From positions 1-64,000 of the IMG/VR virus record IMGVR_UViG_3300023179_003528: DNA of 64,000 nucleotides. One strand, 5' to 3'. The DNA comes from a virus. A model generated the notes under the pieces. The model was not told the DNA's origin. It searched no databases and saw only the letters and a list, made by a program, of their open reading frames with translations. Positions 6,159 to 53,600 of this stretch are shown here, in pieces. The position numbers were made by a program, and so were the translations under genes. Within the stretch, counting starts at the first letter, position 1. Each line of letters opens with the position of its first letter.

Positions 6159-6518
6159 ATGTTATTAAAAGAATTCTTTGGTAGATCACTAGATCTACAA
6201 TCTAACGAGCGTAAACGTAACGATAAATTACGTGATGAACTTTTTCAATTTGTTATAGAACATGACAGATTGCATAAAGATTATTTCTTTCCAATTGCTA
6301 GGAAAATTAAACTGGCACAAAAACAGAACACCGGTGAATCTAACTTCACTGAAGAATTCTTACCTATGGTTAAAAAGGGCTGTTTAGAATTTTATCATAA
6401 GAAAAACATGATGGGCAAACCTGAAAAAGTGTTTACCAAGGATCTACAAGAAGAAATGTGTGAACGGCTGTATAATCACTACTATGAAGACATCATAAAG
6501 GATCATTATAAATTATGA
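6159..6518 (+). CDS. Hypothetical protein
   Basis: 119 aa, tightly coupled; MLLKEF leader. Confidence 0.7.
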   Translation: MLLKEFFGRSLDLQSNERKRNDKLRDELFQFVIEHDRLHKDYFFPIARKIKLAQKQNTGESNFTEEFLPMVKKGCLEFYHKKNMMGKPEKVFTKDLQEEMCERLYNHYYEDIIKDHYKL

Positions 6519-7378: not shown

Positions 7379-8514
7379 AAATACAGGAACTATTACAAGA
7401 GGCAGAACCTGCTGTTGGTCGTAAGTATCAGCACATAGAAGATCTTGTTTTTACAGGTATTCCCAGTAAAGGAATAGCACCTGGTGCTAAAGCAGGACTA
7501 GAAGCCGTTAGAATTTTAAACGGTATGTCTAGCTCACCTAAGGCCAATGAGTTAAAATGGGATGGCAGTCCTGTAATTTACTGGGGCAGAGATGCACAAG
7601 GTAGGTTCAGTATGATTCCTAAAAATGCCTGGGAATATTTAAAGAGAGGTAAAACTGAAGTAAGCCCAGGTGTTCCTACTGCTATGTATTCTCCAGACGA
7701 TATCAAAAAATTTATTTTAGGAACTGGTAAGAATGAGCCAGGGCAGGAGAAGCAAAGGCAGATGTTTGCCAATCAACTTGCTGGTCTTTGGCCATATTTT
7801 GAAAAGATCAGTCCACCTAAAGGTTATATAGAAGGTGGTATATTATTCAGTCCTTTACAACCCTATACGTTTAATCAAGAGACTCAAGAATTTGACTTTC
7901 AACCAAACATCACAGGATTTCATATTCCCAAGGACAGTGGGCTAGGTAAAAGAATTAGTAAAGCAAAATTAATGGTAGCAGCCACTGGTTATTATGATAG
8001 TTTAGGCAGCGCAGAAGAAAGTAGATTTCCAAACGCAGAAAAATTAAGCACACCAGATGTTATTGTGCAAGGAACCCATTATGTAGAAAAGGCTCCTGGG
8101 ATAGATAGTAATTTATTAGACAGTGCTCAATCATATATCAATAGTAATGCTAAATTGATAGATAGTTTTTTAGCTCCTAAGCCTGGTCTAAGCAAAGTAG
8201 GAGATATACTCTATAAATTTTATAATCAAAATTTGCGTATAGATGCTGTGAAAGATAAATTTGTGGATTGGGCACAGGCAAATCTATCTGCCAATCAGGC
8301 CACTAAGCTCATAAGCGACCCTGGTCTAAATGCTGCACTCACCGCAGTTGAATTATTAAGTAAAGCCAAAATGGATGTATATCGTAGAGCCAGTTCTGTC
8401 AAGCATGGAGACATTCGCCAAACCAAACCAGAAGGGTATGTTTATCAAGATCCACAGACTGGTCAATTTGTTAAGGCTATCAGTCAAGCAGACTGGGCAC
8501 CAAGGAAAGACTGA
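7375..8514 (+). CDS. KxDG-motif protein (ligase-like covalent nucleotidyltransferase fold; DUF6267-like)
   Basis: HIEDL, LKWDGSP (motif I-like), IEGG, PEGYV (motif IV-like), FVK (motif V-like). Confidence 0.6.
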   Translation: MKIQELLQEAEPAVGRKYQHIEDLVFTGIPSKGIAPGAKAGLEAVRILNGMSSSPKANELKWDGSPVIYWGRDAQGRFSMIPKNAWEYLKRGKTEVSPGVPTAMYSPDDIKKFILGTGKNEPGQEKQRQMFANQLAGLWPYFEKISPPKGYIEGGILFSPLQPYTFNQETQEFDFQPNITGFHIPKDSGLGKRISKAKLMVAATGYYDSLGSAEESRFPNAEKLSTPDVIVQGTHYVEKAPGIDSNLLDSAQSYINSNAKLIDSFLAPKPGLSKVGDILYKFYNQNLRIDAVKDKFVDWAQANLSANQATKLISDPGLNAALTAVELLSKAKMDVYRRASSVKHGDIRQTKPEGYVYQDPQTGQFVKAISQADWAPRKD

Positions 8515-8515
8515 A

Positions 8516-9685
8516 ATGTTATTAAAAAACTTTTTTGAAGCAATAGAAAGAACAGGACAGGGCAAAACTGCTGTAATAGGTTGGGGGCGTGGCATGGGTC
8601 ACAAAGGGCACATGATGCTGGCCAGTAGTGTTATAACTAAGGCTAAATCAGTAGGTGGAGATCCTTATTTTGTAGTCAGTCGCACCATGGGCAAGGATGA
8701 TCCTTTGAGCGCAGATGAAAAATTAGCCATTTACAAAAAAGTATTTCCTCAGCAAGGACATATATTTCAAGCAGCCAGTGACGAACTACCAGATCTTACT
8801 CGTGTGTTGGCCAATCTAAATCAACAGGGATATTCAGATGCTGTGGTAGTTGTAGGGGCCGATCAAGTAAAGGCGTTTCAATATCTAAACAATTATAACG
8901 GTAAACCCAACAAAGCAGGAGACATTCCTTTTAATTTTAATACTTTACAGGTCATTAGTAGGCAAGAAACTGGGGATCCCAGCGCAGGAGAAGAAGGTCC
9001 TAGAGCTACTCCTATGCGTAACATCCTGAACGACCCTAATGCTACACCTCAACAACAATTTCAAGTTTGGCGTGATGCTATGAGTCCGGAAGTATCCGAC
9101 GACGAAGTTCGTCAACTTATGTTAAAGGCAAAACAACGTATGGATCAATTTTCAACCCCCAAAAAGAAAATTAAAGAAAAAATGCTGCCAAAAAGCTCTT
9201 TTGCAGGCACACCAAAAAACAAACTAGGTCCTGCTGCTCACCTAAAAGGCAAAATGAAAAGACCTGCTGGTCAAGGTGATCTAGTAGGTGATGCCCAGGA
9301 AGGTGTGGCGGAAGGCGGCTATGATGACTATAAGAGTAGGTTTAAATATCGAGAATTACAACATGAGCTAGGACATGAACTAAATCCCCCGCGGCAAAAA
9401 CCTAAAGGCATGTATTTCTATACGGTTAGGCCCATGGACCTATTCAAAGCCAAATCATTGGGCCTAAAGCAAAGTCGTAGCGGTAAGTGGTATAGCGCAA
9501 TACCTAACCCTCAAGCAGATAAAGAATTTGGCCCAGGAAAGTACTGGGAACCAAAAAACGAAAGTCAAAAAAAACAGGTGCCCATAGGCGAATCATATGA
9601 AAAAGAAATGTCTAGACTTATCAATAAAATAATAATAAATGAAACAGTACAAAATAACCAGCAAAAACGTACTGCAAAAAAGTGA
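8516..9685 (+). CDS. HxGH-family cytidylyl/adenylyltransferase-like protein with C-terminal modules
   Basis: Start reassigned to ATG 8516 (MLLKNFFEA); GWGRGMGHKGH, DPLS, VVVGADQ, RATPMR motifs. Confidence 0.7.
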   Translation: MLLKNFFEAIERTGQGKTAVIGWGRGMGHKGHMMLASSVITKAKSVGGDPYFVVSRTMGKDDPLSADEKLAIYKKVFPQQGHIFQAASDELPDLTRVLANLNQQGYSDAVVVVGADQVKAFQYLNNYNGKPNKAGDIPFNFNTLQVISRQETGDPSAGEEGPRATPMRNILNDPNATPQQQFQVWRDAMSPEVSDDEVRQLMLKAKQRMDQFSTPKKKIKEKMLPKSSFAGTPKNKLGPAAHLKGKMKRPAGQGDLVGDAQEGVAEGGYDDYKSRFKYRELQHELGHELNPPRQKPKGMYFYTVRPMDLFKAKSLGLKQSRSGKWYSAIPNPQADKEFGPGKYWEPKNESQKKQVPIGESYEKEMSRLINKIIINETVQNNQQKRTAKK

Positions 9686-10269: not shown

Positions 10270-10637
10270 GAGCCAAGGAATTTCTGTCTGAAAAAAAGCA
10301 GGGAAAATTAAGTTCCCGCCAACAACATGCCACTAGGGGACTACATCTTTTTTCAGACGATGAACGTTGGAATAGTGATTATACACAATTTAGATTGGGC
10401 ATGGCCCTGGCCTGCGCCAATGGTCGGGATCCCATTGATGTTAATTGGAAAAGTTGGGTAGGTAAAGCTAAAAGTGCTCATCCCTATACTGAAGAAGAAG
10501 CAGAAATGCTCAAGCAGGCCTATAAGGTAGTAGGCGCAAATTACACAGATTTAAATCACGGCGATTTAGAAAGTGAAGAAGTAAAAAGCGTTAATACAGT
10601 TAGTCCTGTAGCAAATTGGATGAAAAATAATGAGTAA
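10266..10637 (+). CDS. Hypothetical protein (MRAKEF leader, probable head protein)
   Basis: 123 aa, ATGA overlap with dps. Confidence 0.7.
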   Translation: MRAKEFLSEKKQGKLSSRQQHATRGLHLFSDDERWNSDYTQFRLGMALACANGRDPIDVNWKSWVGKAKSAHPYTEEEAEMLKQAYKVVGANYTDLNHGDLESEEVKSVNTVSPVANWMKNNE

Positions 10638-12642
10638 AGAATTTAAGATTTTAAAGGGTCAAACCCATACACGTTATATTTTAGAATCTGCAACAGGAGG
10701 TGCTACTAGTTCAGCAGCAGTCAGTTCTAGCACTGCGGCAGTTTCAGGTATGCGTAGACGAACAGGTGATAACTTGCTTACTCCAGAAGCAGAACAACAA
10801 AAGGTTCCACAGAAACCACGTCAAGGTCCTCTACGTCCTCAGACCGGTGCCGGCGCACACAAGGACAAAAAGCGTGATCAAAAGCAGGGAAAGCAAAAAC
10901 ATAAGAAGCCTTTTTACGAAGACCACGAAATATCCATGGCCAGCAATGAATTAAAAAGTATATATTCAGATGCTAAGAAATTACTGGTCTTGGTTCAGCA
11001 GTATGGAGAACAAGGCGACCTAGAAGCTTGGCAACAGAGCAAGATTACCAAGGCAGCAGATTATCTTAATTCAGTTCTACAAAGCATAGGTGGTGAACAT
11101 AATGAATTAGATGAACTCAAAATGGACAAGGCCACTAACCAAGACAAAATTAATTTTTTTAAAATGCAGGCCGATCGATTCAAGCAACAGGGATTTGTCA
11201 AAGCAGCAGATCAGGCTCATCAACAATCTAAACAGTATAACAAACCACAAAAGGTAATGGAATTAGACAAGCCAAGTGGTAAACTTTATATTTTAGTAAA
11301 GGCAGACAATACTAATAATGTTAGATTGCTCGGAGCATTTGCTAATAATCCAGAAGAAGTAGAATATATGGCGCAGCGCCAAGGCATCAAAGACAAGTCT
11401 GGCAGTAAGATGAAGGCTTTAAAGATTAACCTACTGTTTACTGATGCGGCTCAAGCACTAGAAGATTTAGAAAATATTTTTAGAGATATCGACTTTGTAG
11501 GAGCGGAGGCAGCTGAGTTTGTTTTTAAGAATAATGTTTATGCTAAAAACAACAAAGAGTTAGATCCTGTAGTAGCAGATGAAATCCGCGAATTTCATAG
11601 TTATATAGATTCTGGTGACAATCCTAAAATGAAGATGTATCAATCTGTAGATGCGGGAACAGAACCAGAAGGCAAACCAAAAGGTGTAGATCATTTTGTA
11701 ATAGGACCGGATGGCAAACGTCGTCGTGTGGCTATGCCTGGCAAACCTAGTGCTCAAATGGGCGGACATGCTGTTGAACAACCTAAAACATTTACCTATA
11801 CACTTCAACGCACAGATTTAATGCCTAAGCTACGTTCTATGGGATTTAAATTCGACGGAAATAAGATTATTCTAAGCAAACAACAACGTGACCAACTTGT
11901 GGCTAAGTTAGGTGATCAATTTCAAAGTATATTTGGCCAAGGCGGCAAGTTTGGTGAGGGAATCAAAGGCGGACTTGTAGGTGGTGCAATTGGAGCTGCC
12001 CTAACTAAAAATGTTCGTGGTGCCATGACTGGATATCAACTCGGTAGCAAATTCCAAGATGCCTTGTCAAAGGAGGTCGAGGAAAGTGGTCTTCAATACT
12101 ATACAGGTGTTAAGAAACACGGCGAAAAGTATATGAAGATGGCTGCGGCAGCAGGGCGTAGAGGTGCCAGCCAGGCCGAAATAGGCAAACTCAAAGACAA
12201 ATACAGTAAGGCCTATAAAGAAGAAGATATAGAAGAAGACCAAAAGAAAGGCTTATACTACAACGTAAACAAACGTAAAAAGGCAGGCACAAGTAGAAAG
12301 AAGAATCATCCAGATGCACCTTCTGAACAAGATTGGAAAAATGCCGCAAAGACCGCTAAGAATGAAGACAAAATTAAAGGTGTGGATGGTAAGGCCTGTT
12401 GGAAAGGCAAGCGTTATGCTGGTAAAGTTAAGAAGGCAGACGGCACCTATAAAGACAAATGTGTGCCAGTAGGTGAAGATTCCTATATTGAAAGTCTAAT
12501 GAATCAATTATACGAAAAGGCTCCCCAAGGTTGGGAAGGCACTGTTAAGGCAATGAAAAAGCACAAGGAAATAGATAATCCATATGCACTAACGAATTGG
12601 ATGAAGAATAAAGGTTATAAAAGTCATAAAGCAAAAAAGTAA
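10630..12642 (+). CDS. Modular, Lys-rich putative internal head (poly)protein
   Basis: 670 aa of short modules separated by hydrophobic-x-Glu sites; ends GCA AAA AAG TAA. Confidence 0.75.
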   Translation: MSKEFKILKGQTHTRYILESATGGATSSAAVSSSTAAVSGMRRRTGDNLLTPEAEQQKVPQKPRQGPLRPQTGAGAHKDKKRDQKQGKQKHKKPFYEDHEISMASNELKSIYSDAKKLLVLVQQYGEQGDLEAWQQSKITKAADYLNSVLQSIGGEHNELDELKMDKATNQDKINFFKMQADRFKQQGFVKAADQAHQQSKQYNKPQKVMELDKPSGKLYILVKADNTNNVRLLGAFANNPEEVEYMAQRQGIKDKSGSKMKALKINLLFTDAAQALEDLENIFRDIDFVGAEAAEFVFKNNVYAKNNKELDPVVADEIREFHSYIDSGDNPKMKMYQSVDAGTEPEGKPKGVDHFVIGPDGKRRRVAMPGKPSAQMGGHAVEQPKTFTYTLQRTDLMPKLRSMGFKFDGNKIILSKQQRDQLVAKLGDQFQSIFGQGGKFGEGIKGGLVGGAIGAALTKNVRGAMTGYQLGSKFQDALSKEVEESGLQYYTGVKKHGEKYMKMAAAAGRRGASQAEIGKLKDKYSKAYKEEDIEEDQKKGLYYNVNKRKKAGTSRKKNHPDAPSEQDWKNAAKTAKNEDKIKGVDGKACWKGKRYAGKVKKADGTYKDKCVPVGEDSYIESLMNQLYEKAPQGWEGTVKAMKKHKEIDNPYALTNWMKNKGYKSHKAKK

Positions 12643-12698
12643 GTGAGCAGGAGCCTCTAGCGCCAATTGATCCTACGGATAATACTCAGGCTCCTGCT
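12633..12698 (+). promoter_or_regulatory. Programmed -1 ribosomal frameshift signal (slippery heptamer + stem-loop)
   Basis: A AAA AAG at 12633-12639 in frame; AGCAGGAGCCT (12646-12656) pairs perfectly with AGGCTCCTGCT (12688-12698). Confidence 0.75.
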
Positions 12699-12881
12699 AG
12701 TAATAAAATAGTTAGGTTACCAAAACTCCGTCCGGACATGCCTCTTGACTATTGGGATGCTAGATTCCAACAGGCAGATCCAAATCGCTACCATCAATTT
12801 AAGAATAAAACACCAGAAAAGAAAAGTCAAATGGCTGTAGCTGCTCTAAAACAGGCTAGAGAGAAGCCAAGAAAAGTTTGA
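12639..12881 (+). CDS. -1 frame extension (80 aa) of the 10630 protein
   Basis: Open -1 frame VSEQEPLAPIDP...KLRPDMPLDYWDARFQQADPNRYHQFKNKTPEKKSQMAVAALKQAREKPRKV* fills an otherwise empty gap. Confidence 0.7.
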   Translation, partial: VSEQEPLAPIDPTDNTQAPASNKIVRLPKLRPDMPLDYWDARFQQADPNRYHQFKNKTPEKKSQMAVAALKQAREKPRKV

Positions 12882-12906
12882 CATTATTAATTTAAGATTG
12901 TATCAT
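12878..12906 (+). promoter_or_regulatory. Sigma70-type promoter
   Basis: TTGACA, 17 nt, TATCAT; AAGGAG SD follows. Confidence 0.8.
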
Positions 12907-12925
12907 ATAACACAAGGAGATATAA

Positions 12926-13201
12926 ATGAGTAAAGCATTTGGCGCCCCTGAACAGGCTAAAATTAAACAGATTGTAGCCGAAGGTGTTACAGTAATGCAG
13001 GAAATTCAAGACCTAACTGAGGGTTTAAATGACACAATTAAAGCAGTAGCTGAAGAACTAGAAGTAAAACCTAGTGTAATTAAACGAGCAATTAGAATTG
13101 CACTAAAAGATCAATGGAACCAAGTTTACAAAGAATTTGATGATTTAGAAACCATTGTTAATATCAGTGGTCACGCAAATATGCGTGACGATGAAGAATA
13201 A
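12926..13201 (+). CDS. Small helical DNA-binding protein (T4 DsbA / GapR-like)
   Basis: 91 aa; EIQDLTEGLNDTIKAVAEELEVKPSVIKRAIRIA pattern; strong SD. Confidence 0.55.
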   Translation: MSKAFGAPEQAKIKQIVAEGVTVMQEIQDLTEGLNDTIKAVAEELEVKPSVIKRAIRIALKDQWNQVYKEFDDLETIVNISGHANMRDDEE

Positions 13202-36902: not shown

Positions 36903-39900
36903 TTATAATTCCTCTAGCGGCTCATTATCTTGGTCTGTTAGGGCAAATCCTCCCTCATTAGTGATTGCAACATCGCCACCATAATAGTAACTATCTGGCA
37001 ATTCAGCAGGTCTAGCCTGTAAGAATCTTGCAGGCACTGTGGTGCTGGTCATTAGTGAATATGTAGATGTGCTATTTACTACATCGTTCCATACATCCTC
37101 TGCATCAAATTCACGTTTAATAATCACTAACTTAATATTCTGCTGCACACTCTCTTTAATATTTAAACTAATAGTTTGATCTTTTATACTAAACTCAGGT
37201 GGTAAATAATCTATGCCGCTGTATTCATAACCGTTGAACGAACCATATTTGTCAGAGTTAGTATAAACCCAAACTTGGTTAGTAGAAGTAATAACATAGG
37301 CAGTGCCTAATACTGTAGTTTCTGGAAGATAGGACACTTCAGATATCCATCTATTTTTACGGCCTTCCTCAGAATTCTTTATGGAATTTTCAATTTCCTC
37401 ATCAGTCAATGAACCACTATTCCCTACATAATTAGACACCCAATAGTTTAATTCGCCTTGGTCTGGATTTCTATTAAAATACTTTAGATAATATCCAATT
37501 ACCGTAGGAGCATAATTAGATGGATCAGCAACAGAAACAGTGACACTTGTGCCGTAAATGGGAGGTTTAGGAATATTTAAAAAGTACGGTGTATCATAGG
37601 TAAACTCTATGTCCTGCCTAAATGTTCCAACTTTGTTCAATACTCTACCGCCGTAAACAACTGTAACTTGGTCCTCTAATCTAATCGGATTTGGCACTGA
37701 GGTTGTTGTGTTTATTGTATTTAAAATTATTCCATCGTTGGTCAGTGTGCTATACGAAACTGTTTGACCAAGATAATTTGTGCTTACTGTAGATGTAGTA
37801 AACGACAATGTACTAATGTAGTAGGTATTACTATTTGCCTGTGTATAATGCACCTGTTTTAAAATTCTTTCAGTAAATGGTATTGTCTGTTGACTACCTT
37901 GATCAATAACTTTTGTATTTTCACGTGAATAAAAACTTGGGCTTGTTCCTAGCGTTCCTCTTCTTAGCTGAGACAATACATTGCTAGCAACCTTAAAAAA
38001 TTCAATGCGTTCGGCATCTACAATGATTACTCCTGGAAGATTTTTTTCTATGTCTGGACTGGTTAAAACTTCTGCATCAGCCACATGAATTTCTAGATCA
38101 TATACTGATAGAGGTTGAGTAAGATAAGTTGAATTCTCTTTACTTAATCGTTTAAAATGTGTCCTATTAAAAATATCATTAAAAATTCTATAGCCTAAAA
38201 TTGTAGTGGCTAACTGCTCATTGCTGAACGTAATTATTGTAACCTCATTAACTTCTGAATGATAAAATTTATCTGAGATTTGAATAGTTACTGCATCACC
38301 TAGTATTTCATAATCATAATGATTAACTAGAGGAACACCATCAACAATAACCCAGACGTAATCTATGTCTAAAGCAGGACGACTAATCACATAACGTCTA
38401 GCAGGGTTACCTCTAAAACGTTCTGTTCTCATCAGCATATCGTCATGATTATTATAGGTTATAACTTTTAATTCATAGGGATATGTTGCCGATCCTGGAG
38501 GGGCAATTGTCAATTGATTGCCTACAATATCGTAATCATAACTATATGATCCAGTTTGTGAAATAGCGGCTATGGCTATCACATCACCGTTAACAATAGG
38601 CACCAGTATAGAAAAAGTATTAGGAATTCCACTATAAGCATAATCAAAACCTCTTCTTAGTTCTCTTCCATTTAAATAAGCCCTAACATCTGTAACACTT
38701 CCATAATTTACACCGTATGTATCAATTTTATAGGCTGTAATTAAAGCATTGCTTACTTTGAAATAAGTTACATCAGGAGGACGCAAAAGTTTTCTTAACC
38801 CCGACGAATTAGATTCTACAATAGTTTGAGCCACTACTGGTTCTATGCTTCCCGGTGGATATGTTAATACCCATGAAACTTCCCCAGCATTATCAACCAC
38901 CAGTATTTCTTCATTTATTTCATTAAAATATCTTTGAGCTGTTCCAAAAAACCATGCTGTTACTGTAGCGGTCGTAGAGTCATCTATATTGTAGACATTA
39001 ACTGCTGCTCTATTACTGTTTTCATTTGCATAGGTTAATATATAACCATAATCAGTTGTTGTTGTAACTTCATTAATGGCTGAACCGTTCACTGTAACAT
39101 AGGCACTTTTAACTGTGCCCAATTGTGCTAAACTTTGCAGTTGAACTGAAGAGGTATTATTTGCTATGACACTAACTGTATCAATAACACCTGCTTCTTT
39201 AAAATCTCTACCTCCACCAACACTTATTATACTCACACCCAATATGCCTTTAATATCCTGAGGAGGAATAATTATGTCATTAGAGGACCATTCTATACTA
39301 AACTCTGTAGATGTTGTAAAGTTTGTTGTTGAATTATAGGACATTAGCCTATTCTCAAACGTTACCACTAAAGAACTACTGTTAGGTGGAGTGATACTCA
39401 AATGCCTTGTGCTTAAGGATCCTGGATAGATAACATAGTAGGTATTAACAATAATAGGGGCACCTTCAGGATGCTTGGTGTAGACATTTATACCGGTACT
39501 TTGATTTATTTCTCCCGGAACTAATTCTTCTGGTGCATAAGTGTGGTTAGGGCTTATAAATGCTTCGCCATCAATTGTAATATCTTCAGGATTTATTCCT
39601 AATGCTGCTATTCTGGTGCTAGTGGTCCAAGATCCGCCTTCTATAGCACTGTCTAAAATTGTAGTTTCTGTATCATAAGTCCAGAATTCTATACTGGCTA
39701 TACTGGTTGTGTTAGTGTATGTCCCATCTACAAAAACAGTAGAAATGGTTGCTGTTAAAGGCAGTCGTGTAGATGTTGTTAATGTAACAGTTCTAGCAGA
39801 AGTATTTACAGATTGAACTCGTGGCGTAACATTAAAGAAGCTACCAGAAAGTTGTTGTTTGCTAGCACTAATTACGTTAACTAATTGTCCAGGAAAAATA

Positions 39901-42900
39901 CCTGTGGTAGTTGTTAGTGTTAACACCGATGTTCCGCTACTGGCAGTATTGGTAACTTCAATATTAGAATAAAATGCAATATCATCAGCCCAAAAACTTA
40001 TACCGTAAGCACTGGTGGTTTGTGAACCTGTTCTTTGATCCACTAACCAATTTATGCCCCACTTAGTTGTATAGTTAAATGGCAGTCCTTCTACAACTGT
40101 TCTCGGAAAAGTTATACCTTGCATGAGCTGATCTAAATCAGTACCGGGCATACCGTCTGTTGGAGCATAATATTCACTAATACGATCAACTGCATTTAGC
40201 AATGCTACATTTTTCTTATACCTAACGGTCAATACCTGGTTAGTTTTAGGTGTGTAATTTAAAAATACCAATTTGGAATATTCTTTCCTATAATCGGTGT
40301 TAGCACCAATATAATCTTTATAATAGACCACAGTATAATCACTGCTTAAAACTATTTGACCATCTAACGTGGGCCGAATTTGAGCCTTATCTGGAACAGC
40401 TATCCATGAAAGAACAAATTCTGTGTCTGCGCCATTACACAAGAATTTGTCCTCTGTGTCTATTTGTGACACTTCTTGACTTCTAGATGTTCTATCAAAC
40501 TTCATGCCAAGTGTCAACTCTCTCACTGTGTCATTTGATAACACAGCATAAGCTGAAGCATTTTCTGTAACTGCTCCTCCTCCTGATATTACTACAACAG
40601 GTGGTCTTGTATACCCAGATCCGTAATTTGTAACTTCAAACCCTACTACCTGTCCTGACCTAATAAATGCTCTTGCAGTCGCTCCAGACCCATTATCTCC
40701 TAATTGGTTTACAAGGGTTATTGTAGGCGTTTCTGTATATCCTGCACCGCCTTTTGACACACGAATACTTCCCACATAATAGGTATAATTATCTACCCAT
40801 GATTTCCATGGATAAGTTAGCATCCATGTGTTGGTAGAAGTAAATGAACTTGCAGGAACGGTTGCTGGTATCTCCAATGTATTGAATCCATTCTTAGGAT
40901 CGTCGTAATATGGAGGAAAATCAAAGTCTGTAATGTAGGTATAACTTGGTTCAGTTTGATTATATTTGGTTGTAAAATTTCTAATTTGAGTATGATATGG
41001 TTTTACTTCTTTAAGGTAATCTTCATAGTATTCGCTGTTTTGAACTTTATATGTAGATCTTTGATCCAGCGAACCAGCATTATTTGTTACATTTATGAAT
41101 GAAGTTTTGAATGCCCAATCCAGTCTCTTTTGCTCAGTTAATGCATATTTTATGGCTTTAAAGAATAAAAGATTATAATGAACTTTTAAATCATTTATAA
41201 ACAAATCTTCCTTAATAGCTTTAAGTATATAAGATGTTTCTACGTAAGGCTCGTAACCGCTGTAATTCCAAATCAAATCTTTTATCTGTAATGATCCTTT
41301 TTCTAAATAAACTAAATTATAGCCCTTGCTAAATGAGCCAACTGTGTCATCATCTATTTTTTCTAATATTATATAGTTGCCCTGACCGTTATTATTAACC
41401 TTAACATAATCACCTAGATCAATCTGCTCAATAGTTTTTAGTTGATATATTTCATCTATGGTATATGCGTAATCAACAAACTTATTATATGTCTCGCTGG
41501 TCCAATCAATATAATCCCAATAAAGACTAGTATTATAACTCTGAGTAGCGACTCTCACCCAGCCTAAAGAATATCCTTGGTATTCATACTTTGACCACTT
41601 ACCATTTTGAGTATTATCAACTTCAACTATTGCTGTATAAGGTCTTACTGTAATGGTAGGGGCAGCAGTAAATCCTTGCCCGGTATTTTTAATTGTAGCT
41701 GTAACTACTTGACCTAGACTATCAATCTCTAGGTCAATCTCAGCTCCCTTGTTATTTTCAATATTAACTCGAGGTGCATAAACATACCTATATCCAGGTT
41801 CAATTATGTTTACTGAAACTATTCTACCGTTATTTAAAGAACAAGATAGTTGCGCCTGTTTTAACATAGAAGTGTTTAAAAAATCTAATCCTTCAGTATC
41901 TTCTAATATTATATCATATCGACCATCGCTTACATGGGGAATTTCTTCTTTAGCTTTTAAATTACTTAGATTATATTTTTCTGTAATTCTTTCTGTAATA
42001 ATAATATCATTTACATATTCAATAATGTTTCTGAGTGCTGTAAATCTATCTGCAAACAGTGTTTGTCTAGGGCGAATTCCTATACCATATTTCTCTCTAA
42101 ATGTTAAATTAGGATCAGGAACTGGATTACCTAATAAATCTTTACCTAACAGGCTGTCATATAATTTTTTCTCTAGCAACGCAGGAGGCATGCTGGTGGA
42201 TGAGCCTTCCTGCATCAATAACCATTCTGTATGTCTAGGAATTGAATTATTAATTATATCAGATGAAATATTTAGACTTATTCTATCATCAATTAATATA
42301 GGTCCCACATTGGCCAATGCCAGGGCATTTTGATCTATAATTTGACCAAACTGTATTCCATACCCAGTGGGGTTTTCAATTATACTGGCCAGCTGAACAG
42401 CAGTGACTCTGCGATTTTTCTTATTAGGCAATATAATTCTATTTTTTACCCAGAAGTAATATACATTGGTAAAACCTCCGGTAGTTGGATTATAAACTTG
42501 TTTTACAGAGACAACATCATTTAGAGGATATTTAGGTTGCCCACTTATACCATCAGTTAAACCTTGTGATGTATCCGCAAGCACTGCCCATTCGCTTGGT
42601 AATAACTCGGTGCCTACCCACTCGTATATATCTATTGTAGAGCCAGGAAATAATCTACCCCAGTTATTTTTTCTATAACTAAGCTCACCTTGTTCATACC
42701 AAACATATTTTACATTGCTGGTATCCCACCATATTTCTCCCACATGCTCATCTAACCAGTTTATTTCTGCATCAATAACTACTTCACTATTTCCCACACT
42801 GTAGACCGCGGGATCAATATTAGATTTATACTTGATATCTTCATCAGCGATACCAGCAATTTTCCCTTTTAATGGATCAATTATATCTAGATGCTCAATA

Positions 42901-45900
42901 ACCTCGTCGTTGAATGTATCATATAATGTTAACTTTTGGACTGTGTTGATATCTACCAATTCATCTTGCTGTCTTAAAACACTCCAACTCTTATCAAGAA
43001 TTTTCTTTTGATACTGATAAAATGCACTTTGAGGAACCTGTTCGCCAATTACAGTTCTATATGCAGGTGCTCCTACATAAACCGAATTATCATTAACAGC
43101 TATACTAAAGCCGAAATTAGTTCCTGTGCTAGGATCTAATATAGGTAATTCATCTGCTAATCTAAATTTGTTAAGATAACGATTGTAAACATAAGCAGTC
43201 CCGCTGTATTTTACCGTGTCAAAAAATGTTGTAGATCCAGAGTCAAATGTTGTTTCATCTGAAAGGTCTGAGTTAGAATCTTTGACAAACTTTGTTTCGT
43301 AAATAGCTTCAGAATTGGCCAATAATGAATCATATCTATCAAAGGTCATTCTTAGATTTTTATTTGTGCCTTGCGCTGTAATAATCAACTCTGTTGAATC
43401 AGAATTAACACCGATGGCCTTGCCAAATTTCATACCTGGGTTAGACACAGGGTTGTGTATGATAGATTCTAAATTAAATTTAACAGAATCAGTAAGAGTA
43501 TTTTTATAAACAGCTACCTTGCCATATGATTGATCGGTGTTGCGTGAATCAGGAGCAGATACAAATAACCAATTGCCATCTGAACTGACAGCTACCGCTT
43601 CTCCAAACTTAGCATTTCTTTCAAATGGGCTAGATATAGTCTGTGCCAATGTTATATTGGTTGTTGTAAAAATTGATACAAATCCAGTGTTAGTGTAATA
43701 ACCAGGTGCGGCAATGGCAACAACTTCAGATTTCTTACTACCACTTATAACCTGTCCCCAGCGTGATCCTGTATTGACTGTTATAGGAGCTGCGATATGT
43801 TTTATATATGAAACATTAACCTGATTAGATGCAGTAGTAAAATTATAAACATAGACCGTGCCTGTGCCTGCAATAGAAATATTTGGAGCACCAACTAATA
43901 ATACCTGTGTATTGCCCAAGTCCAGGTTAGAAACATACACACTAGACCCAAAGCGTTCGTAATTATTAGGGTAAGGGCTAATTAAAGAACCTTGACTGAC
44001 TTCAGTATTGGTTCCTATAAATGTGCTAATTTTTACCAACCCTTCTTCTAACCTAGCACTAAACGAACCAGTATTTCCAGCGAATCTTAAACCTCCAGAG
44101 CTATAAGATTGGCGAGTGTAACTTACCAAAGGTGCACCGGCAAAAACTATACCATATGAACTGGTGTTAAACTTATTCAAATGATAGGCCAATCCTTGAC
44201 CGAAATTTGTAAACCCTCCGGGCCTATAATAAGTTGTGCTAGGAGAATTCACACCGTAACTTGTCACAAGACTTACATCACCTTCAATTTCATTGTATAA
44301 AAATACGGTGCCCGTATTCGTTCCTGTTCCTGCGGCCGCGACAACAAAATTATTATTAGAATCTTTTTGAGTTATTTTATAACCCAACTGTGTTGTAGTA
44401 TTTTCTGCAACTGTCTTGATACTATAACTATTGTAATTTTTAATTTTTTCAATGACTTGCCAATTATTATTACCATTGTCTAATAGCCAATTCTTTGCGC
44501 CGTAGGGCAATCTTAGCAATATATTATCTTTTGGTAAATTATCAAAATCTGCGAATTTTGCTGATTGAAATTTAAAAACTAAACCAACATCTTCAGCGGT
44601 AAAGCCAGTAAAGAAAAAACTAGATGTAGTAGAAATTACAAATGAGTTTATTGTAGGAACTTCTACAATTTGATATACACCATTTACTGTGTCTGCAAAC
44701 TGGCTTATGCTAACCACATCATATCTGTTTATATTATGAGCTTTTTTAGTCTTAAAAATATATCTATCAGTAGAACCTTCTTGCAGACTAACCGATGATA
44801 ACGCAGAACTACCTAAAACATATCTATATACATCCCAATCTTTATTTCTCTTATTACTGATCCATACATAGTCATCAATCAATAATACTCTATTATTTTC
44901 AATATCAGTTAATGAATTTTCGTTATAGGCAGTATAATCAACATCATCAAATCTAACAAACCCAGCAGTTTCAAGTTTAAATATTTCTGTGTCATTGGTT
45001 GTTTTGAATGTAGACGACGACACATATCCATCATATGTAATCAACAAATCTGTTTGAGTTGTATAATATATTAGAGACTTATTGTCAATTTGTATTTCAT
45101 CATTGAAAGTCACAATCTGTGGATTATCTACAAACTCTCCTTCACGCAGTGTTACTTCAATTTGTTTATAGGTCTCAAAAGAACCAAAATGTCCTATTCT
45201 AAATGCCCATTCTTCGTTATAAGAAATTTCACCTTGTAGATTATGAATTGCTGCTTTGGCTAATTTTTCAATGGCATTACGTGTGCCCTTTTCTCTAATA
45301 AATCCTTGATAAAATTTATATTGAGCAATAGGATTAGTAAAAATACTATTAAGATACGGTCTAGGAGTATATCCAATCAAATGCTGCGCCATCTTTTGTT
45401 GGGCAGAATCAAAGTTATCTATATCTAAACTATAAAAATCTTCGAATTGATTGATCTTGTAGTCAAAATTTGGTAACAGTTCTGCTATGGGTTTATCACC
45501 TAATAACACCCATTCGGCAAAATCAAACTTATCAGACCCTATAGTACTATTCTTGGCTGTATAATATTTTCCGTTAAACCTTACTACATCTCCTGCATTG
45601 TAATTTGTATAATTTTTCCAATTTCTAATATAGGCAACGTCATAAACAAATCCTGGGCTAAAATAATCACCGTTCCAATCGCTGGTTCTAAATCCTGTTA
45701 ATCTAATTCTTTGTTGCCTATATCCTGTTGCAGTGTTGTATATAGTATCATTAAAAATTGTTGAATTATTTAGAACAATCGCATGTTCTTTTTGAATATT
45801 GTTAAGAGTGGCAAAGTATAAACCATCAGTAAAATTTACTGTGTTTATGGTACATAAACCATCTTCTCTGTTAACATTGATATTGTTTTTTGGAATAGGA

Positions 45901-48900
45901 ATACCGTTGGCCTGTAGCAAACTATAGTCATAAAAACTGTCAAAAATATTATCAACTACTGTGTTAGGCAGTTTGAACTTTAGAACATCTGCAAAAGGAC
46001 TTAGTGTGATAACACTATTGTTTGCCCAATTTTGACTTGCCCAATATAAAAACTCTTCGCCAGTGAATGACCAATCTACAACACGTACAAGATCTGAATT
46101 ATATACATCAAAAACAAATCCGTGTTCTGTTAACCACTGCCCATAGCCGATTATTAAATCATACACTTCTTGAATACTTGTAAGTTCTGTTCCATATGGA
46201 ATAGTTTCTGTAAAATTATTAAAACTATTCCAACGCTGCACTGTTATTCCACCTTTAATAGGCAAGTAAGGCATGCGTTGATAATATTGCTCATCAAAAT
46301 TAGCAGTTGTCTTATGTCTAGTCTTTACACGATAAAATGCATTATTGTATGTTACAATTTGTCCAACTTCATATAAAACCCCTCCCGATGATACTGTGGC
46401 CGAGGTAGGATCAGTTTGACTTGAACTAGATGTAGGGGCTGTAGACGAGCTCTTCCAATCCACATAAGGTTCACTAACACCACCTACCGTTAATGTAGGT
46501 GTATTAACATTTCTTCTAGGTCTGTATATGGTAAAATATGGATCTTTCTTATCATAGCCTTTGATAACAAAATTGCCATTAGATTTTTGAAGAATTATAC
46601 CACTGATACTGATAGAACTTACAGGATTACTTACATTTAAAATTAGTTTATAGTCTTCAGGTGGCAATACACTACCTGGACTTGTGCTAGTAGGGTCTAT
46701 AGCATCAATAACTACCTGCACTTTATCCTTACTAATAAACCCGCCGACTTTATAAAATAAATTAAAGTCTAAATAATCTAAATCTGATCTTAGATCTGAA
46801 ACGTAATTTCTTGTTCTTGAAAGACCTACTTCAACAACATATTGACTAAATCCAGATAGCAATTCAGATGTTTCTGTATGAATCAAAATATTTTTTAATT
46901 TGATAAAATCTAATGTGCTACCATAGGTAATTTGGCCAGCAGCATTTGTTGAAATTCTGTACGGATCATACATGTATGCTGCGTAGTGCATAGGAGAACA
47001 TAAGGCCATAATCTTCTGCACGGTAAATGGCCAATAGCTACTTCTGCGCCATGCAGATTCGGCAGGACCAATATCGCCTACTTTCCAATTATTTTTCCTT
47101 TGTCCTAATTTAATACTATCAACAATTAGGTCAGGGGCTACAAGATCTCCTTGTCCGTCAACTGGTATTAAATTTAATAGACCGTCTCTAGCATAAAGAG
47201 TATCTGTTCCTTGTCGTGTTCCTTGCCTAATTATACCCAAAGATAGGTCTTCCCATAAGGGAAGATTACCAGATGTATATGGAGCAACTCCATACTCATC
47301 ATCCCACCATGCAGGTTTTTCTGTGAAGCCTAACATCTCCCAAGGATGAGTATGAGGACGATCTGTTCCATATAGGTACCTATACACAGATCTCCAAGAT
47401 CCTGCAACATGAGTATCTATGCTAGAAATATATGCTCCGGTATAGTTCCAGGTCCAAGGATTATCTTCATCAAAGGCCGTATTTGTTTCAGGATCTATAC
47501 CATAAAATCCGCTCCATCTAATAAAATCTTTAGTTATAATTTTATTAATATCAAGTTCACTGAACAAATTATTCTTAAATGCACCTATTAACAATTCATT
47601 GTAATCTAAAAGATCTCGTCTAAAATTTACTTTAATATTATTGTAGACTCTCTTTTCAAATTCTAAAAGAACGTCATCTCTATAATCATTATAACTTCTA
47701 ATAATACTTCCATCGTGGCATTGGATAACATAAACCGGATCAATATATGTGTCGTCTAAATATTTTGCAGGAGTATACTTCTGGTAAATCCCTAACTTAG
47801 TAGGTGTAGGCGGAACATAAGATCCTACTGTGGATGTATATTCTACAACTTTTAAAATGTCACCAACAGATGGTGCGAACAATAATTCTATAGCAGCATC
47901 ATTAGGTACAAAATTATAATCTTGGCCTACTATAAGTTGAACATTATTTAGATATATTAATACAGATTTTTCACTTAAATTTAGAAGATTAAATTCACTT
48001 GAAATTGGATATTCTAAATTGTTGATGTTAGTAACTGTCCATTCACGAATAGTTTTATCTGACCCGTATCCTAACATATCAGAGTAATAATAAGAACTTA
48101 ATAGATCTTTATCTGAATTAAGTTCTTTTAATATTTGATCAACAGCATCAATTGGTGTTGTGGCATCTGTTATATCTGAAATTTTTCGTAAAAATGCTAA
48201 TTTAAATTGATTATAATGATCGGATGCTTTATCTAACGCAGTAATAACACTGTGTTCTTTTTTGCCTATGAAAAATAAACTAAAAGCAATAGGATTAATA
48301 TTAGAAATTAATCTTTTACCATATTTCTCTATATTGTCAATATCTCTAAGATTACTATTGCCAGGAAAATTGCCTACAAAATCAGGGCTGGCATCGATCA
48401 TTGATTTGAGATGATCAGAAACTTCCGTGAACGTCAGCGTTCCAAATTTTTGATTTAAAGGATTATTAGTTAGAGCTAATGGTGATTCCCAATAACCTAC
48501 CTTTCCTAAATCATTGTCAGTATGTATTTTAATTAATAACTTAGACCCTGAACTTAGCTCAGTGTCAAATTCTATTTGTGCTGTTTGATTAATTGTAGAT
48601 ACTGTATAATCGCCAGCATCTAACTTTTTATTATCAACAAATACTTCAATTGAATAACTAGCAATAGGTATAAAAGATTCTAAAATATACGTAGAGGTTG
48701 CTTGATCTAAAACTTTAAATTCTATAATAGGTATACCATACTCTACTGTATCATTCCAAGTATTTTTATACACTTCTCCAGACTGATGACAGTATTTTAC
48801 AAAAGTCTTACTAGTTTCTAAAGTTGTTCCATCTGAATAAGTTATTAGGGAATTATTCAAATAATCTTCAAATATAAATCCGCCTACTCCTTGATTAGAA

Positions 48901-50630
48901 TAATTTATATTAATGTCGAGTATAGAATCTAAATAGGGTCCTTCTTGATAACCAAATATTTTATTTCCTTGAAAATCAGTGTTTGTAAACTGTTCTCCAT
49001 CGTTAGTAAATAGGTCAAAAAGTGGTGCTTGATTTAGTGTATCGTGCGATTGCCCTTGAATCCAATTATCTCCATCGAACCACCAACTTGTTCCTTGATA
49101 TTTGACCCCACTGTTAACAGCACAGACAACTCCTTGTTGAATCTGAGCAACCTCGTGTAATTCTATTCTTTTTCTACCCGCTATAAAAACTATATTAACT
49201 TGATATATCTTATTTCTAACCTGTTCATCTGTATCAGCAACAAAAATTATTCTATTTCCTTGCTCTAAGTGAACTTGATCAGCTATATGAGCAGACCTGC
49301 CTTCTACTAAACTAAATGCATCAGTAATATAGTCATCGATTAAATCTACATTCGGTAGTCCCTCAGTTCCAAAATTGTATAATTTTAGATCGGGTTTAAA
49401 CTCAATAATAGGACGTTTAGCACGCTTATCATTTGGATATACAGGAACAAGATTATTAGCTTCTGCACTTTTTGTTATGACTTCTTTATGAAACCATCTA
49501 TTGTAACGAGACCACGGATTAAGGTCTCTACTTGAACGGTTTATTGTGATATATTCCTGACTGATAGGTAATGCACTGTAATTGTCAAAAGGATATGTGT
49601 CAAACGGACTGGAATCAAAATTTTCATCATAGATTTCACTGAGATTAACATTAGTAATTAGGCTTGCTACATCTATTAATTTAATTGCCTTACCAACTCC
49701 TTCAACAAAATATTCTTTATCTATATACGAAGATGGAACAACTGTGCCACCAAATCTAATTTTCATTCCATTGGTTAATTCAACACCAGTTCCAGAAGTG
49801 TAAAATTGTTTACCTACTATTTCATCTTCTACATTTATAATTGAATCTTCTGCGATATTTCTAACTGCGATAATACCTTTGGCCAAACTAGATGCATCTG
49901 CTGCATAGTATAAAGTATCAGGCGTGTCATTGTCCACCATCATGGTTAAGGTGCCTGCACTTACTCCATTATTTGAGATGTTTTGATTATATAAATCATC
50001 ATTGCCTACACTGGGTTGTGTTTTAATGTAAAATTTATATATAGAATTTATATTAAAATTATAGGTATTACCTCTATAAAGTATTAGTAAAGGATCTTCT
50101 GTAATACCGTCTGGACTAAAAACAAAAGAAGTTTCAGTAGCATTGTCTACAACAGTAAATGTAGACGTAGAATTTAGTTGTGTTCCAGTAATAGTAACTG
50201 TATCAGGTCCATTGACTAGCCAATAATATTCTTGATAATTAACAAATTTGTCAAGATCTATATGTGGATTGTAGGACGCAAAATGGCTTCTATAAATTTT
50301 ATCAAAATTCTTGGAATTACCGTTATTGTAGTTAATGGTATTAGTTAAATCATCAATACCGATAACATCTGTAATCTCACCGGTGTTATCCTTAACCACA
50401 AGTGCTGGTTCTAATTGATAATCTCTACGAAGTTGACTTTTTTCAGTGAGATATAAATCTTGATTAGGATCGTAATTGGGGACAAGTTTAGATCCTATAT
50501 AACCATCAATTCTTTCTACACTAGGAGGCTGAACTAGTTGATCGATGGTGCTAGATAAAAACTTAGCATTTTTTTCTGAACGAATAAATTCAGGTAGTAA
50601 ATTGACAGATTTAATACTCTTTTCAGCCAT
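36903..50630 (-). CDS. Giant (~4575 aa) multidomain baseplate/virion protein
   Basis: Uninterrupted ORF; start likely MAEKSIKS; LLPEF N-terminus, IREKGT, KPYHT motifs; FG-GAP-like propeller repeats; follows wedge gene. Confidence 0.85.
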
Positions 50631-50631
50631 A

Positions 50632-53600
50632 CTATGTTCCGGATGTATTAACAATATTCGATGAGTTTAATTGAGTTGCGGTAATAGCATCTATCACGTC
50701 TATATCATCAGCGGATACATCATTAATAAAAATTTCATTAGATAAACAACTTACCTCATATAAACTTCCAAAGTTGCTTGACCTAGGCACAATCACAAAA
50801 TTTGTTATATCAGGAGATAACAAATTCATGACATATGTAGATAGTTCACTAAAATAAAAAGATTGTCCAAAATCCCAATTATCAAGATTAAAGAAATCAT
50901 TAATAGCCAATAATATTCTACTTTTAATTTCATTATCGCTGCTGGTCCTTGCAGTATTTTTAACTGCCTTAAAAGAGGCCTGCAGACTAACTGGCGCTTT
51001 TTTTCCAAATAATATTTTATACTTAATAGGTTGAAACACTATCTCATCGCTTATTGTTTTAATAGGCTCTAGCACACCAGAATAACTTTGTTCAAGGCCG
51101 GTGCTGGTTGGCGGTAACGGTTCACTACCAATACCTGTCAATAACCATGATCTAAATTCTGTATCATATGAACTGGTCAATAGATAGATATCTATTAAAT
51201 TACTCTTACCCGGATCTATTCTTCTATCCTCGCTGCTATTATGTTCGTAATGAAATTTAATACCAGACCTTCCAGGATAAGCCAAATAATCAGATTCATA
51301 TACCCAAGTTGTGCCATCATATGAATTTACTACATTATAACTGTCATCATAAAAATAATAAAGTTGATTTGTAGATGTGCCTTGAGGAACATTATCTGGA
51401 TTACTATATGCAATAAAACTATCTCTATCTATCAAGGACAATTCCGTTCCGTTGGTAGATTTTTGAAAATAAACAAATTTATCTAATTGCCAATTTCCAT
51501 CTAAACCTAACACGGTACCTGTAGATTGAGGTTGAACTACGTTGATAAATGAATCTGGATCATCTAATTCACCAAAACTGGTCTTTTCATAAAAACTAAC
51601 TAGAACTTTTTTAGGATCTACATAACCATCTTGTTCTACAATATTATCATCTACCTGCCATACGTAGTCTTTTTCTAGTGCATAAGTTGTCAAAGGATCT
51701 TCATTGACAGATAATACTGTGATTCGATCTTTGACAACGGTATTTGATACATAATCATAATTTACACTATTCTTATCTATAAAGAAAGCAGTTTCCTGTT
51801 CACTTTCAAAAATTAAATCTAAATTTCTTGCCCTTACCCTATAGTTTTTTCCTGTCCATGTAAACGCAACCAACCAACTGGAATCTAAATTAGCATCATC
51901 TAAGTTTCCTTGGTTAGATAAACCAAAAGGACCAACTAGGTCAAGATTTGAATCTAAAATAATTGTCCATTGTCTAGTTAACTGACTAAAACTTATACCA
52001 AAGTTTCTCTGAGCTAGACAAAGATTAACCATTTCATTTTCAAATTGCAAGGTTAATACGTCAACAAATTTTGGAATAATTTCTGTAGGAATAGCGCCTG
52101 TAGGGATGTAGGCGCTGATTGTAATAGGACCAGTTCCGTCATCTAGTTGACCTGCTCCGGTATTGCTACCATCACCTACAACTTGAACAACCTTAACCCA
52201 AACATAGTTTTTAGTTGAATTGCTTTTATTAGAAACTAACTTATTTGAAGATGAAAAATACTTACCACTAGAAGGTTTAAACTTTACTAAGGCTCCGGGC
52301 ACTAACCATTTCAAATTATTAGACGTAAAATCTCCAACACTGTAGGCAGTATTATCACTATCTTCTAAATATCCCTTGTTTTGTCCTAGCACAGGAGCGT
52401 TCCAAGTTAAGTTTAAACTGGATAAATTGGGCCTTGAAAACTTATCTATGTAAAAAGACTTTAACGAAGGAGCAGCAACTACAGGTTCAACAAGAGTTTT
52501 AATGAATCCTAATATTCCGTTACGGTTATTTGATGTAAATTCAAATGATTTTTCTGTATCTTTCTTATATAATATACCGTCAGATGCAAAAATGTTTGTC
52601 TTACTATATTTCCCACTAACATCACTAAGTTCAAAGTACTTGCTAACTCCGCTGCTTACCCTATTGACACTTTTTACTTTAATAATATCGCTGCCTAAAG
52701 TTAGAGGAGCTATATTATAATCTTCAGCAGTTACCATTCTATTCTGAACGTAAAACGCCTGTGGTGCTTTATTTTGAATACTTACATTACTTTCTGTTGC
52801 AGCACTGTTATTAATTGTGTATTGCAGAGCAAATGTCAGTGTAAGTGTATGGTTTTGTCCACTTTTGCTTACATATGGTATCTCAACTACTATACCATTC
52901 ATCTGTTCTGGCTTAATTGTATACGTTAGACCATTACTTTGCCTATAAAATAGTCTAAATGTGCCCTTAGGTAAATTTCCAAAGTTTCCATCAGCAAAAT
53001 TTAGATCGATTTGATCTTGATCTCTTGTGGTAACACTAAAAATATCACGCTTGTCATTCTTCAAACTATTGTATATTACATTGTTGCCTACAACATCAGG
53101 AACCTTACTCCACAATGAATCATAAGTGCCGTCGCTATCTAACTTCCATAACCACACATCTGTTTGATTGATATTATTAGCATTGATGCCAATTATTTCA
53201 TTGGCTACAGGATTATCAATTGTAAAGTTACTTGAAGTTAGTTCACCTTGTCTAAAATGCACAAAGAATCCTGTGTTAACACTTCCAGATCCTTGATTAT
53301 CATTTCTATAGATAAAACTAAATGTGGATCTTGGTCTAGGAGCTTCTTCATAGACAAATAACTTGCCCGAAAATGTGCAGGGAACAATTTCAAATGTCAT
53401 TGCTGTGCCGTTTATATTCTTTAAAAAGCTATATACAGGCACATCTGTATTACTGCTATTAATTCTATACTGCTCTGTCAGTATGCCATCGATAGTTTCC
53501 CTATCGTAGGGCTTACCAAAACTAAAACTTCCCCCCATGGCACTGTTAAGAATACTAATAAATTGTCCATACCAATTACTATTGGTGCTGTCATTCCATC

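Follow-up and report, generated by a model that had tools for sequence, protein, structure and literature searches.

In insertion sequences of the IS3 family (IS911/IS150-type), OrfA stops near a frameshift site that is followed by a stem-loop, and shifting at this site leads to the longer fusion protein OrfAB. The heptamer A_AAA_AAG is among the most shift-prone in Escherichia coli, where it serves as the shift site of dnaX and where AAA is a better pairing partner than AAG for the single tRNA-Lys (PMC5009743). The "shifty stop" idea of Weiss et al. 1987, as cited in PMC5009743, holds that a stop codon immediately 3' of a slippery sequence raises slippage. Among phages, a frameshift in the major head protein of Lactobacillus phage A2 is cited in PMC5009743, and T4-like phages have been reported to do without frameshifting for the tail chaperone (Vladimirov et al. 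2022, as cited in PMC10885494). Here we describe a locus in 64,000 nucleotides (nt) of DNA from an uncultured T4-like lake phage (positions 1 to 64,000 of IMG/VR virus record IMGVR_UViG_3300023179_003528; this whole stretch is referred to as the window), where a long modular open reading frame (ORF), encoding the protein P0001, ends on A_AAA_AAG and is followed in the -1 frame by a conserved C-terminal module. Programmed -1 ribosomal frameshifting at this heptamer is the best explanation for the arrangement, and we consider it very probable on the sequence evidence set out below.

An earlier note on this DNA had proposed such a shift, and the elements from which it argued were confirmed. The 3' end of the ORF at 10630–12642 reads GCA AAA AAG TAA (12631–12642), placing the heptamer in frame. 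The segments 12646–12656 and 12688–12698 are exact reverse complements and form a perfect 11-base pair (bp) stem, separated from the heptamer by a 6-nt spacer and enclosing a 31-nt loop with an inner hairpin. The -1 frame runs without a stop for 80 codons, up to the TGA that ends at 12881, and has no good start of its own; its first ATG, at 12738, is not preceded by a Shine-Dalgarno motif. The features of the locus are as follows.

10630–12642, + strand: zero-frame modular ORF of 670 amino acids (aa), P0001, with the N-terminus MSKEFKILKG...YILE-SATGG
12633–12639, + strand: slippery heptamer A_AAA_AAG, in phase as X_XXY_YYZ (codons AAA at 12634–12636 and AAG at 12637–12639)
12640–12642, + strand: zero-frame stop codon TAA, abutting the heptamer; a possible "shifty stop"
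12639–12881, + strand: -1 frame extension of 80 codons plus TGA (12879–12881)
12646–12656, + strand: 5' arm of the putative stimulatory stem, AGCAGGAGCCT, encoding S-E-Q-E-P in the -1 frame through the rare codons GAG and CAG
12657–12687, + strand: loop of 31 nt with the small inner hairpin AUCC/GGAU (12670–12673 pairs with 12677–12680)
12688–12698, + strand: 3' arm of the stem, AGGCTCCTGCT, encoding Q-A-P-A in the -1 frame
12729–12869, + strand: conserved C-terminal module (extension residues ~31–77), predicted to be a small two-helix domain

The predicted transframe product is 750 aa long, with the junction ...AKK-VSEQEP.... Readthrough of the stop codon was rejected as a route to the downstream sequence, because the zero frame meets a second stop (TAG) five codons past the TAA and readthrough would therefore be unproductive. 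By itself, the heptamer is unremarkable in this AT-rich window, where A_AAA_AAG occurs 44 times against ~32 expected and is in phase in 6 of the 31 copies that lie inside ORFs taken as genes; it is the combination of features, and their conservation in relatives, that exceeds chance. Elsewhere in the window, a second in-phase A_AAA_AAG followed by TGA (9676–9685) ends a cytidylyltransferase-like ORF of 436 aa (8375–9685). The -1 frame is open there for only 16 codons, and this site, probably a chance occurrence, was dismissed as a frameshift signal. No tRNA genes were found in the window.

Related loci were gathered from IMG/VR in three ways, using P0001, an alignment of the module, and the exact 20-mer AAAAAAGTAAGTGAGCAGGA, which is present in 33 viral contigs; removal of duplicates left 58 distinct junctions. 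At 35 of these 58 junctions, a long upstream ORF is followed by the module in its -1 frame, and at no junction is the module in the +1 frame, so that a +1 shift (0/35 loci) was rejected. In at least 15 syntenic homologues, the module is continuous in frame with the upstream sequence and the frameshift cassette is absent. The other junctions either run off the end of the contig or are those of further modules, located after the conserved module in the extended -1 ORFs of two loci (L023 and L024). The earlier note had allowed that the homologues might all prove to be in-frame fusions without the stem; the 35 loci instead keep both the heptamer and the -1 arrangement. An in-phase heptamer is present in every one of the 35 frameshift-type loci, as A_AAA_AAG in 30 and as A_AAA_AAA in 5, and TAA follows it directly in all except L082, where the stop lies 15 nt later (34/35). 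The codon carrying the heptamer's first A varies among GCA, GAA, ACA, TCA, CTA, CCA, and AAA (encoding A, E, T, S, L, P, and K, respectively) and so always ends in A while the amino acid changes, which means that the nucleotide is kept and the residue is not. No GGAG- or GAGG-like Shine-Dalgarno motif occurs 5' of the heptamer at 12610–12632, and GAGGA located 7 nt upstream of the heptamer is confined to one subgroup of the relatives.

Both architectures come from one phage group: the first 300 residues of their DNA polymerases are ~72–88% identical to those of the polymerase in the window, and fused and frameshifted loci share the gene order small upstream gene, modular gene, 91-aa regulator, and DNA polymerase. 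Hundreds of P0001 homologues exist in metagenomes, and all family members share the N-terminus MxxEFKK...ET(R/V)Y(V/T)LE(T/S)A(T/S)GG. When the 80-residue extension was compared with 1.8 billion cluster representatives, 109 proteins (up to ~1000 residues in length) were matched, and in nearly all of them extension residues 28–78 form the extreme C terminus. In cultured phages (INPHARED), the gene was not found by blastn and the module was not found by tblastn. An internal module (residues 98–187) is the sole part of the protein that matches hypothetical proteins of T4-like cyanophages.

The stem-loop has a minimum free energy of -21.4 kcal/mol (RNAfold), with a z score of -2.2 relative to shuffled sequences. 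Because loop lengths differ between loci, the MAFFT alignment of the cassettes misplaced the 3' arms, and conservation of the stem was therefore scored by an anchored helix search with shuffles. This revealed an uninterrupted helix of 7–13 bp, starting 4–6 nt past the heptamer, in 24 of the 28 unique cassettes, with dinucleotide shuffles of the downstream sequence matching the observed helix length 0–18 times in 500. The 5' arm, GAGCAGGA(G/A)CC, is nearly invariant across cassettes, and the 3' arm (..TCCTGCT(C)) follows at a varying distance, giving loops of 15–33 nt. The codons GAG CAG in the 5' arm are kept everywhere, though the gene family prefers GAA (84%) and CAA (77%), and the Pro-Ala of the linker is written CCTGCT in 36/55 cases compared with 5/25 in the background (overall frequency of CCTGCT, 0.42 per kb). 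Such fixation of rare codons in the arms argues for selection at the level of the RNA and, together with the changing position of the 3' arm, supports the stem. The 5' arm also contains a perfect AGGAG (12649–12653) without a conserved start downstream, which is probably incidental to the stem.

The downstream frame was examined by pairwise Nei-Gojobori estimation of nonsynonymous (dN) and synonymous (dS) substitution rates. For the extension, dN/dS is 0.03–0.45 in the 10 computable pairs, at dS values of 0.55–1.8 (dS was saturated in 3 further pairs), and the comparison of the window with L021 gives a dS of 0.99 and a dN of 0.07. These values indicate that the -1 frame module is under purifying selection. 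AlphaFold2, run with 44 sequences, predicts a disordered linker followed by a confident two-helix module (predicted local distance difference test score (pLDDT) > 90). The module had no match by PDB profile search or by Foldseek against PDB, and against BFVD it gave sub-threshold matches only (E ≥ 0.1); the proteins matched are uncharacterised and belong to uncultured, jumbo, and T4-like phages.

That the -1 ORF might be a separate small gene, initiated internally at ATG 12738 or by reinitiation after the TAA, is very unlikely. Such a gene would have its ATG at 12738, the corresponding Met recurs in many relatives (P-D-M-P-L-D-Y-W), and the AGGAG of the 5' arm could be counted in its favor. 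However, besides the missing Shine-Dalgarno motif, that Met is lost in several lineages (L003, L047–L051, L062, L065, and L081), and no start codon is conserved in the -1 frame across the relatives. The 30 codons upstream of the Met contain no start and yet are open in 35/35 frameshift-type loci, with the shared motifs VSEQEP...PKLxP kept in most, and the -1 ORF opens 13–61 nt from the heptamer in every one of these loci. Further, homologues carry the module as the C terminus of long proteins. Independent initiation at 12738, which the earlier note had named as a finding that would undo its proposal, is thus disfavored. In a set of 220 database homologues, no long in-frame protein contains the SEQEP linker; it is seen only in P0122, a predicted gene of 83 aa whose start lies in the -1 frame, 5' of the heptamer.

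The shift site is a run of A residues, and the earlier note had asked whether the reads contain six or seven of them. We compared Logan contigs from four runs of four lake/freshwater metagenome studies over 12300–13000; among the sequencing runs found to contain this stretch, none was of RNA. Contigs of all four studies have six A at 12633–12638 and no insertion or deletion at 12633–12639, although contigs may conceal rare variants. A unitig with ~605x coverage is identical to the window across 12528–12661, one contig covers the whole 12300–13000 stretch with 2 substitutions and no gap, and strain variants with 10–12 substitutions are likewise gap-free. The frame break is therefore real DNA and not an artefact of assembly. 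Homopolymers are well known for indels and homologues with an in-frame fusion do exist, yet it is scarcely credible that the locus reflects either an assembly indel (with 7 A in reality) or a recent frameshift mutation that inactivated a once-fused gene: the independent assemblies agree, the break is common to 35 distinct loci and is always -1, and the downstream frame is under strong purifying selection at near-saturated dS. In the lake metagenomes, the summed contig depth triples over the heptamer and 5' arm (12636–12659), and loose ends at these positions run on into L086- and L096-type loops, indicating that the 5' half of the cassette (24 nt) is common to several co-occurring genotypes.

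In the mechanism that we propose, translating ribosomes would arrive at A_AAA_AAG with both the P site and the A site occupied by tRNA-Lys, and the 11-bp stem-loop, positioned 6 nt downstream at the mRNA entrance, would stimulate slippage. This would take the form of tandem or P-site slippage at AAA-AAG, possibly aided by slow termination at the TAA. A fraction of the ribosomes would move back one base and read GTA AGT GAG CAG..., adding a 30-residue linker rich in Pro, Ala, and Gln and the ~50-residue two-helix module to yield the 750-aa form, and the remaining ribosomes would terminate at the TAA to yield the 670-aa form. The ratio of the forms with and without the C-terminal module would be fixed by the RNA signal, and relatives would use the same device, except those in which the module is permanently fused. 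That the slippage is ribosomal, how efficient it is, and what part the stop codon plays in it are inferred. The proposal of the earlier note that programmed -1 frameshifting gives two forms of 670 and ~750 aa is supported by the 35 loci, by the selection acting on the extension, and by the presence of the stem in 24/28 cassettes.

Slippage by RNA polymerase, with one A added in the A6 run, would lead to the same protein product. The shift site is a homopolymer, as this would require, but six A is short for efficient slippage of the polymerase, a conserved helix 4–6 nt downstream and an adjacent stop codon typify ribosomal rather than transcriptional signals, and transcriptional slippage would not need the strict in-phase X_XXY_YYZ seen in 35/35 loci. 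We therefore regard it as improbable as an explanation for the family. Runs of ~9 A are known sites of transcriptional slippage, and in three loci, L052, L060, and L081 (junctions at ~1849, 1469, and 2456, respectively), the sequence is CTA AAA AAA AAG TAA (A9G), the linker is very short, and a stem is lacking downstream. For these three loci transcriptional slippage is a serious alternative, and their module may be reached either in this way or by unaided ribosomal slippage. The two processes are handled alongside each other in the review of Atkins et al. 2016 (PMC5009743).

Several observations weigh against programmed ribosomal frameshifting as we propose it. The earlier note had suggested looking for covariation of heptamer and stem in homologues; the heptamer was retained in 35/35 loci, but covariation of the stem base pairs is weak. 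The 7-bp core of the stem never varies, and in unique cassettes the variable pair is G-C (5), G-U (1), or A-U (1), and also A.C (6, closely related) or A.A (2). The arms of the stem also encode conserved linker residues, so that constraints on protein and RNA are confounded, and four cassettes (L052, L060, L081, and L082) have no stem. No match to an Rfam frameshift element was detected, a cmscan search of 12500–12900 at E ≤ 10 giving one chance match to a long noncoding RNA. The properties of the host tRNA-Lys are assumed, and the other in-phase copies of A_AAA_AAG in the window are without visible function.

The genome record to which the window belongs comprises 76 kb (CheckV completeness estimate, ~20%). 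It encodes a prohead protease of the gp21 type (Peptidase_S77; PF03420, 93.3 bits, above the cut-off, at record positions 73266–73697), a protein of the gp23 capsid family (PF07068, 270 bits), T4-like baseplate genes, and a T4-type DNA polymerase. Pfam and PHROGs returned nothing meaningful for P0001, its extension, or the longer -1 ORFs, and the structure predicted for P0001 in the ESM Atlas is of low quality (pLDDT 0.47), with uninformative neighbors. The N-terminus of the P0001 family, MxxEFKK...Y(I/V/T)LE-(S/T)A, is longer than MKTYQEFIAE of T4, and its P3 position is often V or T. The earlier note had called P0001 a head protein. This label is plausible and rests on the gp21 and gp23 genes and on the T4-like targeting N termini of neighboring genes; P0001 would probably be a protease-processed cargo packaged in the head of a T4-like phage. 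The products of the genes that start at 6159, 7375, and 10266 begin MLLKEFFG, MKIQELLQEA, and MRAKEFLSEK, respectively, and resemble the capsid-targeting peptide of T4 IPII/IPIII, MKTYQEFIAE. Genes that follow the modular gene in other loci start alike, for example with MRAKEFIVE in L009.

Depending on the phage, the cassette is preceded by one of at least four unrelated modules or linkers, and so it has the behavior of a portable junction within a family that shuffles its modules. In L023 (2501–3361), L024 (1133–1831), L027 (2501–2893), and L093, the -1 ORF continues past the conserved module into one or two further small modules, one of which ends ...GQLAHWLANMKAGRAKK; the frameshift could therefore gate several modules (2–3). 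We suggest, tentatively and as a possibility that we hold to be less than even, that the cassette is more than a switch of expression: its DNA-invariant segment (heptamer, TAA, and 5' arm, ~24 nt) and the C-terminal module together would form a portable unit, which would act both as a recombination junction for module shuffling and as a control on the stoichiometry with which a terminal anchoring or effector module is attached to a head cargo polyprotein that is processed by the protease.

Two further observations concern the surroundings of the gene. A promoter-like sequence, TTGACA-17-TATCAT (11/12 matches, 12878–12906), overlaps the TGA of the -1 ORF and stands just ahead of the gene for the 91-aa Spo0A_C-like regulator (12926–13201); similar motifs follow the modular gene in relatives, for example in L006. 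On the - strand, an ORF of 4583 aa (36903–50654) adjoins the T4-like baseplate wedge and hub genes.

Our search of the literature on this cassette, or on frameshifts in internal head proteins or T4-like phages, returned nothing relevant. The mechanism is of a known kind, and as far as we found, what is new is the gene family, its T4-like setting, and the natural pairs of fused and frameshifted genes. The locus would add an unannotated recoding event to the T4-like phages, in which frameshifting of structural genes is not known. Gene callers split or drop the extension, so that annotation is systematically wrong for this family of proteins, which is abundant in freshwater phages, as exemplified by P0122 (83 aa). 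Sister phages with the permanently fused module provide natural controls for asking what advantage a sub-stoichiometric C-terminal module confers. The cassette is short (~66 nt) and hence directly testable in reporters, for which the site at 9676 offers a handy negative control.

With respect to known systems, the internal proteins of T4 (IPI–III and Alt), which have a capsid-targeting sequence and are processed by gp21, are among the closest. To our knowledge, no frameshift is known in T4 internal proteins. As in T4, genes for a gp21-type prohead protease and a gp23 capsid protein are present and the locus is hypervariable, and the neighboring genes start M(K/R)xx(K/Q)E(F/L)(L/F)xE, comparable with MKTYQEFIAE of the T4 record for IPII/IPIII. 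In contrast with the T4 proteins, P0001 is far larger and modular, and its N-terminus EFK...Y-I/V/T-L-E fits the (L/I)-x-E rule loosely, less well than the neighboring genes do. The frameshifts of phage structural genes (the tail chaperone G/GT, T7 10A/10B, and the major head protein of Lactobacillus phage A2) resemble the proposed system in that -1 slippage yields one protein in two forms, short and C-terminally extended, whose ratio is set, but the gene described here differs in family and position, and its extension is a module that undergoes shuffling and that sister phages carry as a constitutive fusion. Unlike the gene for G/GT, it does not lie between the tail tube and tape-measure genes; it is flanked by a Dps/ferritin-like gene and, past the small regulator, by a family-B DNA polymerase.

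The likeness to IS3-family elements lies in the A_AAA_AAG-type site (the use of this heptamer is noted in PMC5009743), in the stem-loop that follows it, in the nearby stop of the upstream ORF, and in a transframe fusion as the longer product. The phage gene is, however, no transposase or mobile element: DDE and HTH domains were not detected in it, and it is a syntenic gene between the Dps-like gene and the DNA polymerase. E. coli dnaX, which produces tau and gamma, has the same heptamer with a 3' stem-loop ~6 nt downstream and makes two products at a fixed ratio from one gene (PMC5009743). It differs in that dnaX has an internal Shine-Dalgarno sequence ~10 nt upstream, of which there is none at 12610–12632, and in that the dnaX shift truncates the protein, whereas the phage shift would lengthen it by 80 residues; moreover, it is in the phage gene that the zero-frame stop touches the heptamer. 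The dnaX element of Rfam (RF00382) likewise gave no covariance-model match in 12500–12900. Thus, the dnaX/IS3-type label of the earlier note fits the heptamer and the 3' stem only; a 5' Shine-Dalgarno stimulator and an Rfam match were looked for and not found. Overall, the comparison suggests that the phage signal works like those of dnaX and the IS3 family without belonging to the curated dnaX element.

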